IMG/VR virus record: IMGVR_UViG_2681813263_000013 | Reading direction: 5' to 3' (one strand) | Source of the DNA: a virus | Lineage: Duplodnaviria > Heunggongvirae > Uroviricota > Caudoviricetes | DNA: 4,500 nt | Shown: positions 1 through 4,500 of the stretch, one piece after another | Position numbering within the stretch: position 1 is the first letter of the stretch | Layout of the letters: every line of letters begins with the position of its first letter | Notes under the pieces: generated by a model | Seen by the model: only the letters and a program-made list of their open reading frames with translations | Databases searched by the model: none | What the model was told of the DNA's origin: nothing | Program-made: the position numbers and the translations under genes

Positions 1-1
1 G

Positions 2-655
2 GAAAGATATTTCCCCTGCGTGAATATCTCCGGTGAGCCGGAGGCGTATTTCCGTATGTCGCCGGAAGACTGGCTGCAGGCAGAGATGCAGGGTGAGATT
101 GTGGCACTGGTCCACAGCCACCCCGGTGGTCTGCCCTGGCTGAGTGAGGCCGACCGGCGGCTGCAGGTGCAGAGTGATTTGCCGTGGTGGCTGGTCTGCC
201 GGGGGGCGATTCACAAGTTCCGCTGTGTGCCACATCTTACCGGGCGGCGCTTTGAGCACGGGGTGACGGACTGTTACACGCTGTTCCGGGATGCTTACCA
301 TCTGGCGGGGATTGAGATGCCGGATTTTCATCGTGAGGATGACTGGTGGCGTCACGGTCAGAATCTCTATCTGGATAATCTGGAGGCCACAGGGCTGTAT
401 CAGGTGCCGTTGTCAGCGGCGCAGCCGGGCGATGTGCTGCTGTGCTGTTTTGGTTCATCGGTGCCGAATCATGCCGCCATTTACTGCGGTGACGGCGGGC
501 TGCTGCACCATATTCCTGAACAACTGAGCAAACGAGAGAGGTACACCGACAAATGGCAGCGACGCACACACTCCCTCTGGCGTCACCGGGCATGGCACGC
601 ATCTGCCTTTACGGGGATTTGCAACGATTTGGCCGCCGCATCGACCTTCGTGTGA
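2..655 (+). CDS. K: Tail tip assembly protein K (JAB/MPN metalloprotease-like plus NlpC/P60 cysteine-peptidase-like domains); 5' end probably truncated by the window edge
   Basis: Frame is open from the first in-frame codon (2) to TGA at 653..655. Translation carries a JAMM motif H-x-H-x7-S-x2-D (HSHPGGLPWLSEAD; His codons 113..115 and 119..121, Ser 143..145, Asp 152..154). It also has an NlpC/P60-type Cys (DCYTLF, codon 272..274) and His (NHAAIY, codon 470..472). Sequence matches lambda gpK as I recall it. ATG at 56 corresponds to the classical 199-aa lambda start; the ORF track uses GTG at 20. Spacing to I and J reproduces lambda exactly. Confidence 0.93.
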   Translation, partial: ERYFPCVNISGEPEAYFRMSPEDWLQAEMQGEIVALVHSHPGGLPWLSEADRRLQVQSDLPWWLVCRGAIHKFRCVPHLTGRRFEHGVTDCYTLFRDAYHLAGIEMPDFHREDDWWRHGQNLYLDNLEATGLYQVPLSAAQPGDVLLCCFGSSVPNHAAIYCGDGGLLHHIPEQLSKRERYTDKWQRRTHSLWRHRAWHASAFTGICNDLAAASTFV

Positions 656-1224
656 AAACGGGTGCCGAAGCCATCCGGGCGATGGCCACACAGCTCCCTG
701 CGTTTCGTCAGAAGCTGAGCGACGGCTGGTATCAGGTGCGTATTGCCGGGCAGGATGTTAGCACGTCCGGATTAACGGCGCAGTTACATGAGGCTCTGCC
801 TGACGGCGCTGTGATTCATATTGTTCCCAGAGTCGCCGGGGCCAAGTCAGGTGGTGTATTCCAGATTGTCCTGGGAGCAGCCGCCATTGCCGGATCATTC
901 TTTACCGCCGGAGCCACCCTTGCAGCATGGGGGGCTGCCATTGGTGCCGGTGGTATGACCGGCATTCTGTTTTCTCTCGGTGCCAGTATGGTGCTCGGCG
1001 GTGTGGCTCAGATGCTGGCACCGAAAGCCAGAACTCCCCGCACACAGACAACGGATAACGGTAAGCAGAACACCTATTTCTCCTCACTGGATAACATGGT
1101 TGCCCAGGGCAATGTTATGCCTGTTCTGTATGGTGAAATGCGCGTGGGGTCACGTGTGGTATCTCAGGAGATCAGCACGGCAGACGAAGGGGACGGTGGT
1201 CAGGTTGTGGTGATTGGTCGCTGA
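553..1224 (+). CDS. I: Tail tip assembly protein I (ubiquitin-like N-terminal region, Gly/Ala-rich hydrophobic central segment)
   Basis: ATG at 553 with GAGG about 10 nt upstream; 223 codons; stop TGA 1222..1224. Starts 103 nt inside K in a different frame, as in lambda. Translation MAATHTLPLASPGMARICLYGDLQRFGRRIDLRVKTGAEAIRA... matches lambda gpI from memory. Confidence 0.93.
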   Translation: MAATHTLPLASPGMARICLYGDLQRFGRRIDLRVKTGAEAIRAMATQLPAFRQKLSDGWYQVRIAGQDVSTSGLTAQLHEALPDGAVIHIVPRVAGAKSGGVFQIVLGAAAIAGSFFTAGATLAAWGAAIGAGGMTGILFSLGASMVLGGVAQMLAPKARTPRTQTTDNGKQNTYFSSLDNMVAQGNVMPVLYGEMRVGSRVVSQEISTADEGDGGQVVVIGR

Positions 1225-1242
1225 TGCAAAATGTTTTATGTG

Positions 1243-1270
1243 AAACCGCCTGCGGGCGGTTTTGTCGTTT
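1243..1270 (+). terminator. Putative stem-loop in the I-J spacer (8-bp stem aaaccgcc / ggcggttt, 4-nt loop tgcg) followed by a T-rich tract tgtcgttt
   Basis: Read directly: 1243..1250 is the reverse complement of 1255..1262, followed by a T-rich run to 1270. It lies between the I stop (1224) and the J start (1285). Function as a terminator is unproven. Confidence 0.2.
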
Positions 1271-1284
1271 ATGGAGCATGACGA

Positions 1285-1298
1285 ATGGGTAAAGGCAG
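1285..1298 (+). other. J: Start of host-specificity gene J (first 14 nt, atgggtaaaggcag, encoding M-G-K-G), interrupted at 1298/1299
   Basis: ATG at 1285 lies 61 nt after the I stop, as in lambda, with GGAG at 1273..1276. The remainder of the J 5' end (S-S-K-G-H-T-P-R-E-A-K-D-N-L-K-S-T-Q-L-L-S-V-I-D-A-I-S-E) is found on the minus strand at 1878..1796, so the gene is broken here by an inversion. Confidence 0.7.
1289..1298. repeat. Left arm of a perfect 10-bp inverted repeat (gtaaaggcag) at the inversion breakpoint
   Basis: gtaaaggcag at 1289..1298 is the exact reverse complement of ctgcctttac at 1879..1888. Both adjoining bases differ, so the repeat is exactly 10 bp. Confidence 0.85.
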
Positions 1299-1794
1299 AT
1301 GCGCGCCATGCCCGGTGACGCCAGAGGGAGTGTGTGCGTCGCTGCCATTTGTCGGTGTACCTCTCTCGTTTGCTCAGTTGTTCAGGAATATGGTGCAGCA
1401 GCCCGCCGTCACCGCAGTAAATGGCGGCATGATTCGGCACCGATGAACCAAAACAGCACAGCAGCACATCGCCCGGCTGTGCCTCTGTCAGTGCGACACG
1501 GTAAAAACCCGTCACCTCCATATTGTCAAGATAGAGATTCTGACCGTTACGCCACCAGTCATCCCCGCGATGAAAATCCGGCATCTCAATCCCTGCCAGA
1601 TGATAAGCATCCCGGAACAGCGTGTAACAGTCCGTCACCCCGTGCTCAAAGCGCCGCCCGGTGAGATGCGGCACACAGCGGAACTTGTGAATCGCCCCCC
1701 GGCAGACCAGCCACCACGGCAAATCACTCTGCACCTGCAGCCGCCGGTCAGCCTCACTCAGCCAGGGCAGACCACCGGGATGACTGTGGACCAG
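1299..1794 (-). pseudogene. K: Inverted, 5'-truncated second copy of K (K'), diverged from copy 1 (about 93% amino-acid identity by eye); its 3' end overlaps the first 50 nt of a second I gene (minus strand 1348..1299)
   Basis: The reverse complement of 1299..1794 aligns colinearly with + strand 107..602, with scattered and clustered substitutions. The minus-strand translation reproduces K from LVHSHPGG through the NlpC/P60 Cys and His to RHRAW. The ORF-track minus ORF 1150..1734 is this copy reading through into unrelated sequence. The minus strand 1348..1299 encodes MAATHTLPLASPGMAR, the start of I'. Confidence 0.8.
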
Positions 1795-1795
1795 N

Positions 1796-1878
1796 CTTCG
1801 CTGATGGCATCGATCACACTCAGCAGCTGCGTGGACTTCAGGTTGTCCTTCGCTTCGCGCGGGGTATGCCCCTTACTG
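1796..1878 (-). pseudogene. J: Inverted fragment of the J 5' end (J nt 15..97, codons 5..32), joined to K' at an ambiguous base
   Basis: Reverse complement of 1796..1878 reads agc agt aag ggg cat acc ccg cgc gaa gcg aag gac aac ctg aag tcc acg cag ctg ctg agt gtg atc gat gcc atc agc gaa g, which is S-S-K-G-H-T-P-R-E-A-K-D-N-L-K-S-T-Q-L-L-S-V-I-D-A-I-S-E and continues the MGKG at 1285..1298. Position 1795 is n. Confidence 0.8.
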
Positions 1879-1888
1879 CTGCCTTTAC
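1879..1888. repeat. Right arm of the 10-bp inverted repeat (ctgcctttac)
   Basis: Exact reverse complement of 1289..1298. It lies within codons 17..20 of the second I allele. Confidence 0.85.
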
Positions 1889-2232
1889 GGGGATTTACAA
1901 CGATTTGGTCGCCGCATCGACCTTCGTGTGAAAACGGGGGCTGAAGCCATCCGGGCACTGGCCACACAGCTCCCGGCGTTTCGTCAGAAACTGAGTGACG
2001 GCTGGTATCAGGTGCGCATTGCCGGGCGTGATGCAGGTGAAACCGAATTGTCTGCCCGTCTTAATGAGCCGCTGGCAAATGGTGCAGTGATCCACATAGT
2101 ACCGCGTCTGGTGGGAGCTAAAAGTGGCGGTGTGTTTCAGGCGGTGCTGGGGGCGGCTGTTATGGCGGTTGCTATATGGATGCCGGGGGTAGGAATTATG
2201 GCGAGTAATCTGCTGTTTTCTCTCGGTGCCAG
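1879..2232 (+). CDS. I: Second, diverged allele of tail assembly protein I (I'), partial: codons about 18..135 on the + strand, first 17 codons displaced onto the minus strand (1348..1299), 3' end lost in the N gap
   Basis: In frame with I numbering, the translation reads (I)CLYGDLQRFGRRIDLRVKTGAEAIRALATQLPAFRQKLSDGWYQVRIAGRDAGETELSARLNEPLANGAVIHIVPRLVGAKSGGVFQAVLGAAVMAVAIWMPGVGIMASNLLFSLGA. The first roughly 150 nt are nearly identical to copy 1 (603..750); the centre is strongly diverged. The ORF track starts this at GTG 1928 and runs it through the N gap as X residues. Confidence 0.8.
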
Positions 2233-2913: not shown

Positions 2914-3047
2914 GTGCTGGGTACGGAAGTGAAATATGACACGCCGATCACCCGGACCATCACGTCGGCAAACATTGACCGACTGCGTTTTACCTTCGGT
3001 GTACAGGCACTGGTGGAAACCACCTCAAAGGGAGACAGGAATCCGTC
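2914..3047 (+). CDS. J: Host specificity protein J, internal fragment on a separate contig end (about residues 90..133 in lambda J numbering)
   Basis: Frame 1 translation VLGTEVKYDTPITRTITSANIDRLRFTFGVQALVETTSKGDRNP matches lambda J from memory. Bounded by N runs on both sides. Confidence 0.85.
2965..3047. repeat. 83-nt direct repeat copy A (partner 3198..3280, 8 mismatches, about 90% identity) flanking the second gap
   Basis: Both copies encode SANIDRL-R-(F or L)-TFGVQALVETTSKGDRNP, the same segment of J. This points to overlapping contig ends from two J alleles rather than a real tandem repeat. Confidence 0.8.
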
Positions 3048-3197
3048 NNNNNNNNNNNNNNNNNNNNNNNNNNNNNNNNNNNNNNNNNNNNNNNNNNNNN
3101 NNNNNNNNNNNNNNNNNNNNNNNNNNNNNNNNNNNNNNNNNNNNNNNNNNNNNNNNNNNNNNNNNNNNNNNNNNNNNNNNNNNNNNNNNNNNNNNNN
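3048..3197. other. Assembly gap (150 N), probably spurious (negative gap)
   Basis: The flanks are near-identical copies of the same J segment, so the true sequence is probably continuous without an insertion. Confidence 0.85.
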
Positions 3198-4500
3198 TCG
3201 GCAAACATCGACCGTCTGCGCCTGACCTTCGGTGTGCAGGCACTGGTGGAAACCACCTCAAAGGGTGACCGGAATCCGTCGGAAGTCCGCCTGCTGGTTC
3301 AGATACAGCGTAACGGTGGCTGGGTGACGGAAAAAGACATCACCATTAAGGGCAAAACCACTTCGCAGTATCTGGCCTCGGTGGTGGTGGGTAACCTGCC
3401 GCCGCGCCCGTTTAATATCCGGATGCGCAGGATGACACCGGACAGCACCACAGACCAGCTGCAGAACAAAACGCTCTGGTCGTCATACACCGAAATCATC
3501 GATGTGAAACAGTGCTACCCGAACACGGCACTGGTCGGCGTACAGGTGGATTCGGAGCAGTTCGGCAGCCAGCAGGTGAGCCGTAATTATCATCTTCGCG
3601 GGCGCATTCTGCAGGTGCCGTCGAACTATAACCCGCAGACGCGGCAATACAGCGGTATCTGGGACGGAACGTTAAAACCGGCATACAGCAACAACATGGC
3701 CTGGTGTCTGTGGGATATGCTGACCCATCCGCGCTATGGCATGGGGAAACGTCTTGGTGCGGCAGATGTGGATAAATGGGCGCTGTATGTCATCGGCCAG
3801 TACTGTGACCAGTCGGTGCCGGACGGCTTTGGCAGCACGGAGCCGCGCATCACCTGTAATGCCTGGCTGACCACACAGCGCAAGGCGTGGGATGTGCTCA
3901 GTGATTTCTGCTCGGCGATGCGCTGTATGCCGGTATGGAACGGGCAGACGCTGACGTTCGTGCAGGACCGACAGTCGGATAAGGTGTGGGCCTATAACCG
4001 CAGTAATGTGGTGATGCCGGATGATGGCGCGCCGTTCCGCTACAGTTTCAGCGCCCTGAAAGACCGCCATAATGCCGTTGAGGTGAACTGGATTGACCCG
4101 GATAACGGCTGGGAGACGGCGACAGAGCTTGTGGAGGATACGCAGGCCATTGTCCGTTACGGTCGTAACGTCACGAAGATGGATGCCTTTGGCTGTACCA
4201 GCCGGGGGCAGGCACACCGCGCCGGGCTGTGGCTGATTAAAACGGAACTGCTGGAGACGCAGACCGTGGATTTCAGCGTGGGTGCTGAAGGGCTTCGTCA
4301 TGTACCGGGCGATGTCATTGAAATCTGCGATGATGACTATGCCGGTATCCGCACCGGCGGGCGCGTGCTGGCGGTGAACAGCCAGACCCGGACGCTGACG
4401 CTCGACCGTGAAATCACGCTGCCATCCTCCGGCACCACGCTGATAAGCCTGGTTGACGGGCAGGGGAATCCGGTCAGCGTGGAGGTCCAGTCCGTCACCG
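3198..4500 (+). CDS. J: Host specificity protein J (tail tip central fibre protein), internal portion; 5' end in gap, 3' end beyond the window
   Basis: Frame 3 is open for about 434 codons from 3198 to the window end, which is why it is absent from the ORF track (no stop in window). Translation SANIDRLRLTFGVQALVETTSKGDRNPSEVRLLVQIQRNGGWVTEKDITIKGKTTSQYLASVVVGNLPPRPFNIRMRRMTPDSTTDQLQNKTLWSSYTEIIDVKQCYPNTALVGVQVDSEQFGSQQVSRNYHLRGRILQVPSNYNPQTRQYSGIWDG... matches lambda J from memory with a few substitutions. Confidence 0.95.

Follow-up and report, generated by a model that had tools for sequence, protein, structure and literature searches.

The window analysed here, a stretch of 4,500 nucleotides, carries the same 83-nt segment of a lambda-like J gene on either side of its second long run of N. 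This apparent repeat is very probably a false duplication that arose when alleles of two prophages were scaffolded in series, in which case the intervening 150 N and the change of reading frame across them would both be artefacts. The window is the reverse complement of the entire record CXDG01000260.1 (4,500 bp) from the Shigella sonnei draft assembly GCA_001252135.1, and the proteins of this record are labelled Shigella sonnei. The runs of N and the pieces that meet at the second long gap are listed below, where types A and B denote two allele families.

1795-1795, no strand: N run 1, a single N, contig junction marker
2233-2913, no strand: N run 2, the first long gap, 681 N; true distance 562 nt on both reference types
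3048-3197, no strand: N run 3, the second long gap, 150 N; true flank-to-flank distance -83 nt, that is, an overlap
2914-3047, plus strand: left fragment, type A, 134 nt, J nt 265-398; 100% identical to L003-L014, L030 and L031
2965-3047, plus strand: copy 1, type A, J nt 316-398; exact in 12 IMG/VR contigs
3198-3280, plus strand: copy 2, type B, J nt 316-398; exact in 10 IMG/VR contigs, none of them on the type A list

The two copies are each 83 nt long and differ by 8 mismatches (90.4% identity), located at positions 2976, 2982, 2988, 2989, 2991, 3003, 3033 and 3037 in the numbering of the left copy. At least 75 matches in 83 positions would be expected by chance with a probability of about 1e-30 (p = 0.3 per position). 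The left copy translates to SANIDRLRFTFGVQALVETTSKGDRNP and the right copy to SANIDRLRLTFGVQALVETTSKGDRNP; seven codons are changed between them, of which six are silent and one is a TTT to CTG substitution (F to L), and as six of the seven changes are silent the copies are considered real alleles rather than errors. The initial annotation had described the same J stretch at about 90% identity with 8 mismatches and one F/L difference, and alignment of the flanks bears this out. Mapped on gap-free J genes, both copies correspond to J nt 316-398, equivalent to residues 106-133 of lambda J in the FNIII-A domain. Copy 1 ends with its last base at 3047, directly abutting the gap, and copy 2 starts with its first base at 3198, directly abutting the other side. 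The left piece (2914-3047) represents J nt 265-398 and the right piece begins at J nt 316, so that codons 106-133 appear twice at 90% identity because both flanks cover them.

The assignment to J is supported by sequence homology, domain content and gene order. The translation of the right flank aligns with residues 106-539 of the lambda tip attachment protein J (chains 8iyk_J and 9e7m_Ja; E about 1e-294), and the J pieces contain the Pfam domains FNIII-A_GpJ (PF24801) and Phage-tail_3 (PF13550), both above the cut-offs. On the FNIII-A_GpJ profile, the left piece spans positions 7-48 and the match of the right piece begins at position 24, and the two pieces therefore overlap. Furthermore, K (NLPC_P60) and I (Lambda_tail_I) are encoded upstream in the window, and the order K-I-J, which is that of lambda and is also found in annotated complete genomes, is present in the gap-free loci L001, L002 and L030. 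J in the scaffold does not form a single open reading frame of about 1,130-1,165 codons, as two N runs interrupt it, the frame shifts at the second of them and the gene is truncated at position 4500. Intact J genes of 1,165 aa are encoded downstream of an identical type A I protein in L030 and L031, and the broken open reading frame in the scaffold is attributed to assembly.

Loci from IMG/VR and NCBI drafts served as references for the scaffold alleles, because no complete E. coli genome matches these alleles well enough; the loci compared are numbered with an L. Within the 30 other loci the segment is present once per J gene, and in all cases with an annotated J start it lies at J nt 316; L032 contains two J pseudogenes with one copy each. 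No contig among 2.9 million IMG/VR contigs contains the conserved 27-mer core of the segment twice at a gap of 191-221 nt. Taken together, the copies abut a gap on one scaffold, the segment is single in gap-free assemblies and the two versions are distinct true alleles, all of which are features of false duplications. A genuine tandem segmental duplication was considered as a candidate class and rejected, as the copies belong to two allele families and their junction consists of N only.

The lengths of the N runs point in the same direction. The first long gap comprises 681 N, compared with 562 nt on both type A and type B references, and at the second long gap the right contig begins 83 nt before the end of the left contig on gap-free references. 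Since both lengths disagree with gap-free references (681 vs 562 and +150 vs -83), the N runs are interpreted as scaffolding size estimates. This agrees with the earlier proposal that the second gap is a scaffolding artefact, which is substantiated by the true distance of -83 instead of +150 nt and by the single copy in the 30 other loci. The frame change from 1 to 3 had likewise been called non-biological, and it follows from the copy offset of 233 (2 mod 3) across a mis-sized gap. The possibility that the N runs mask real colinear sequence was ruled out, as the first gap holds 681 N vs 562 nt and the second would need a duplication. Furthermore, the left 'contig' at the second gap consists of merely 134 nt (2914-3047) with N on both sides, a feature absent from the initial annotation.

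The two copies belong to separate allele families. Exact 83-mer searches of IMG/VR recovered the type A version in 12 contigs and the type B version in 10 contigs, with an overlap of 0. All 134 nt of the left piece are found without a mismatch in 14 type A loci, and 10 type B loci contain the right copy at 100% identity; the type B loci are likewise 100% identical to the initial 240-287 nt of the right contig. The same partition extends upstream: type A loci are 99.4-99.6% identical to window positions 1-1298 (K, I and the J start) and 100% identical to the reverse complement of 1796-1888, and type B loci are up to 100% identical to the reverse complement of 1289-1794 (K) and to 1879-2232 (I). 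Each J type is thus linked to a K/I allele set of its own, and this scaffold contains both sets. As type A and type B loci each match alternate pieces, the scaffold can be described as interleaved pieces of two K-I-J modules. The earlier claim that J is stitched from at least two prophage alleles is upheld by the exact matches of the copies to type A and type B loci and by their linked K/I sets.

NCBI drafts and 12 IMG/VR contigs contain the exact type A 134-mer; it is absent from 5,426 complete RefSeq E. coli genomes (best match 97.8%) and yielded 0 matches in contigs of GTDB species representatives, which shows no more than that this collection does not contain the source. The best match of the right piece in complete E. 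coli genomes is 97.5%. The exact type A I protein occurs on 605 blocks of contigs, where it is named 'tail assembly protein [Shigella sonnei]'. This distribution suggests that the type A prophage allele typifies a lineage that the complete RefSeq E. coli set does not include. The cluster that contains the I protein of the window also includes a partial lambda tail assembly protein I of 170 aa on a 511-nt contig (REM14657.1), labelled 'phage tail protein, partial [Mycobacterium tuberculosis]'. Its presence in that assembly is almost certainly due to contamination with enterobacterial or lambda DNA.

The part of the window upstream of the first long gap contains the following features, which meet in two inverted joins.

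1-655, plus strand: K, type A, 5' end cut by the scaffold end; Pfam NLPC_P60 and Prok-JAB (NlpC/P60 / JAB peptidase)
553-1224, plus strand: I, type A, complete, 223 aa; Pfam Lambda_tail_I
1285-1298, plus strand: J start, type A, first 14 nt, ending in GTAAAGGCAG; the match of 1-1298 to L003 and L030 stops here
1289-1794, minus strand: K, type B, inverted, putative chimeric join; 100% identical to L023
1796-1888, minus strand: J nt 5-97, type A, inverted, encoding GKGSSKGHTPREAKDNLKSTQLLSVIDAISE; 100% identical to L003 8324-8416
1879-2232, plus strand: 5' part of I, type B, joined through the 10-mer CTGCCTTTAC; 100% identical to L022, L023, L024 and L026; Pfam Lambda_tail_I

Besides the second gap, the scaffold contains at least two further joins that are predicted to be chimeric from the way in which its pieces continue in other loci. 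Window positions 1-1298 (99.4-99.6% identical to the type A loci L003, L007, L009, L010, L013, L014 and L030) run straight into the reverse complement of 1796-1888 on the references, and L003 8324-8416 directly continues from the point where the 1-1298 match stops. Correspondingly, the reverse complement of 1289-1794 runs straight into 1879-2232. Positions 107-612 and 1289-1794 form an inverted repeat of 506 nt that is 94% complementary. The J start contains the 10-mer GTAAAGGCAG and the K/I boundary (603-612) its reverse complement CTGCCTTTAC, and both inverted joins, located at 1289-1298 and 1879-1888, pass through this 10-mer. As the reference continuations cross over at the 10-mer, the scaffold appears to have swapped partners twice at a 10-nt inverted microhomology. 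A read-through open reading frame across the first of these joins (1150-1734, minus strand) has been deposited as CSQ77247.1, 'Tail assembly protein [Shigella sonnei]', is encoded only on contig CXDG01000260.1 and represents a singleton cluster among about 15 billion proteins. Being both a singleton and the product of a putative chimeric join, CSQ77247.1 is regarded as a false K(B)/intergenic fusion protein in public databases.

Five positions within 1-1298 (487, 498, 1246, 1252 and 1264) are the only ones at which the window departs from all type A loci in the comparison (L003, L007, L013, L030 and L031). Positions 487 and 498 lie inside a stretch where the K sequence of the window is common to types A and B, and 1246-1264 lie inside the I-J intergenic stem-loop. 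These five differences may be strain variants or result from consensus mixing between two prophages.

E. coli IH5 (H51) is the sole complete genome that covers more than 80% of window positions 1-2232. It was considered as backing for the inverted join and rejected, because its palindromic K-I-J' arrangement differs. In the IH5 locus (L032, from NZ_CP168269.1; locus positions 3193-9270), the genes form a head-to-head palindrome (J'-I-K' / 'K-I-J') that is flanked by tRNA-Ala and a 5S rRNA gene, and every K and J copy is annotated as a pseudogene. This palindrome represents a misassembly or, alternatively, an unusual remnant of a prophage.

The right J contig is itself mosaic and comprises three parts.

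3198-3437, plus strand: type B part; B loci are mismatch-free up to 3458 or 3484, except L021 at 3316
3438-3484, plus strand: B-to-A switch interval, a 47-nt stretch in which A and B are identical
3485-4500, plus strand: type A part, to the scaffold end; rest of FNIII-A and Phage-tail_3

Type A loci show 14 mismatches to 3198-3437, the last of which is at 3437. From 3438 to 4500 no mismatch to L003 was found, and B loci diverge from 3459 or 3485 on. The 116-nt junction stretch is common to four IMG/VR contigs that otherwise carry different, unrelated alleles. Because natural J alleles are mosaic in the same manner, the switch at 3438-3484 may reflect true recombination or a change of path by the assembler.

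The following scenario would account for these observations. The scaffold, part of a short-read draft, would have been built from at least six small contig fragments of the K-I-J tail genes of two lambda-like prophages. These prophages would alternate between identical stretches and stretches that differ by 6-14%, so that the assembler would have been able neither to collapse nor to separate them, and the scaffolder would then have placed alternative versions of the same region serially with N gaps in between. At the second gap, type A J nt 265-398 would form the left flank and type B J from nt 316 the right flank, and the real genome would contain one intact copy of the segment per prophage. 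If greedy extension halted where reads disagree, contig ends would be expected at A/B variant sites. The distances observed from contig ends to the nearest A/B variant are 1, 1, 5, 6, 7, 9, 11, 25 and 76 nt, at a mean variant spacing of about 12 nt; two ends thus lie 1 nt from a variant, and the proximity overall does not exceed chance. The exact assembler behaviour in this scenario is an inference, and based on the single-N junctions, greedy joins and accession style, we speculate that a Velvet/SSPACE/GapFiller-type pipeline (PMC5320598) was used. The initial annotation had proposed overlapping contig ends that were too divergent to merge. The overlap of 83 nt is confirmed, but the ends do not represent one locus: by their allele matches, the flanks are predicted to be paralogous alleles of two prophages, and the correct resolution would be two separate J genes. 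A gap closure that merged such paralogous flanks would therefore be wrong as well.

The same artefact could also have been produced from a mixed or contaminated sample, with the alleles contributed by two strains carrying different prophages rather than by one chromosome. The sequence is by itself compatible with one genome or two, and the exact 83-mer types are never found together in one IMG/VR contig. However, several lambda-like prophages per genome are normal, with a median of 2-3 and up to 14 J matches per complete E. coli genome. Furthermore, in IMG genome 2690316210 the J on contig L011 is of type A, K and I of type B occupy a separate contig (L026) together with a near-B J, and both types also occur in L003 (IMGVR_UViG_2698536312_000003), which derives from another isolate. 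A mixed sample is thus very unlikely, and as multi-J genomes, 2690316210 and L003 speak for co-residence, two prophages in one chromosome are the likeliest source of the alleles, as inferred from these other assemblies.

In L003, B-type tail genes are followed by a single N and then by A-type H-M-L-K-I-J. Within its positions 4902-5508 (N at 5497), the B-type genes end at the K/I boundary and are joined to the middle of the A-type tape-measure gene; a different isolate shows mis-scaffolding of the same prophage pair at a nearby position. Single-N junctions are also present in L010 and L011.

Still less likely than a mixed sample is that the window represents a true rearranged prophage remnant, in which an inverted K and a J pseudogene with both versions of codons 106-133 would be genuine, or, as a weaker variant, that true gene conversion took place at 3438-3484. 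A more specific proposal, namely a real partial J duplication by unequal recombination between resident prophages that led to a frame-shifted J pseudogene with both versions, is highly improbable. Shigella genomes are rich in rearranged prophage remnants, the length of 150 N is an estimate and bases could lie between the copies, and the clean B-to-A switch in the right contig makes exchange between J alleles conceivable. Against this, each copy reaches its gap edge to the base, as is typical of contig ends, the left piece measures 134 nt and is enclosed by N, and the size of the first gap is wrong as well (681 vs 562). Moreover, the window contains two more inverted joins at a 10-nt microhomology, the product of which is a singleton although the species is heavily sequenced (605 blocks for the type A I protein), and no such case was found in the other loci or in IMG/VR contigs. 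Error-rich reads of a single allele, which give rise to 'homotype' false duplications, a known minor class (PMC9516828), are effectively refuted as the source of the duplicate, as both 83-mers were found independently as exact matches in 12 and 10 other contigs and six of the seven codon changes are silent, as in evolved alleles and unlike random error.

With two prophage alleles scaffolded in series as the preferred reading, record CXDG01000260.1 matters as a data-quality warning only, and nothing biological would be duplicated. The false K(B)/intergenic fusion CSQ77247.1 is already in public databases, and the J fragments of the scaffold would mislead surveys of J (host-range) alleles, prophage counts and pseudogenes in Shigella. 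A duplication at gap flanks can be settled without reads by exact allele look-up in other assemblies.

The scaffold J resembles lambda gpJ (PDB 8iyk, 8xcg and 9e7m) in its FNIII-A and Phage-tail_3 domains and in the K-I-J order. In contrast to lambda gpJ, it is broken by two gaps, lacks nt 98-264, appears stitched from two alleles and has its end off the scaffold. Mosaicism as such is natural in lambdoid tail genes: in L002, A and B states are mixed within the 83 nt, L023 has a type B 5' end and shows no difference from A between window positions 3585 and 4423, and the sampled J alleles combine shared variant sites in many ways. However, natural mosaics swap one segment for another, and unlike in the scaffold, both versions in series were found in none of the 30 loci. 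The closest parallel is provided by heterotype false duplications in vertebrate assemblies, where two diverged versions of one region are kept, with a gap between them on one scaffold as a listed hallmark, and lead to apparent duplications as well as broken genes (Ko et al., 2022, Genome Biol 23:205, PMC9516828). The window resembles these cases in that a single scaffold carries both divergent versions of a region, separated by a gap. In contrast to the diploid haplotypes of the vertebrate assemblies, the two versions in the window would be paralogous prophage copies in a haploid bacterium or, less likely, derive from two strains.
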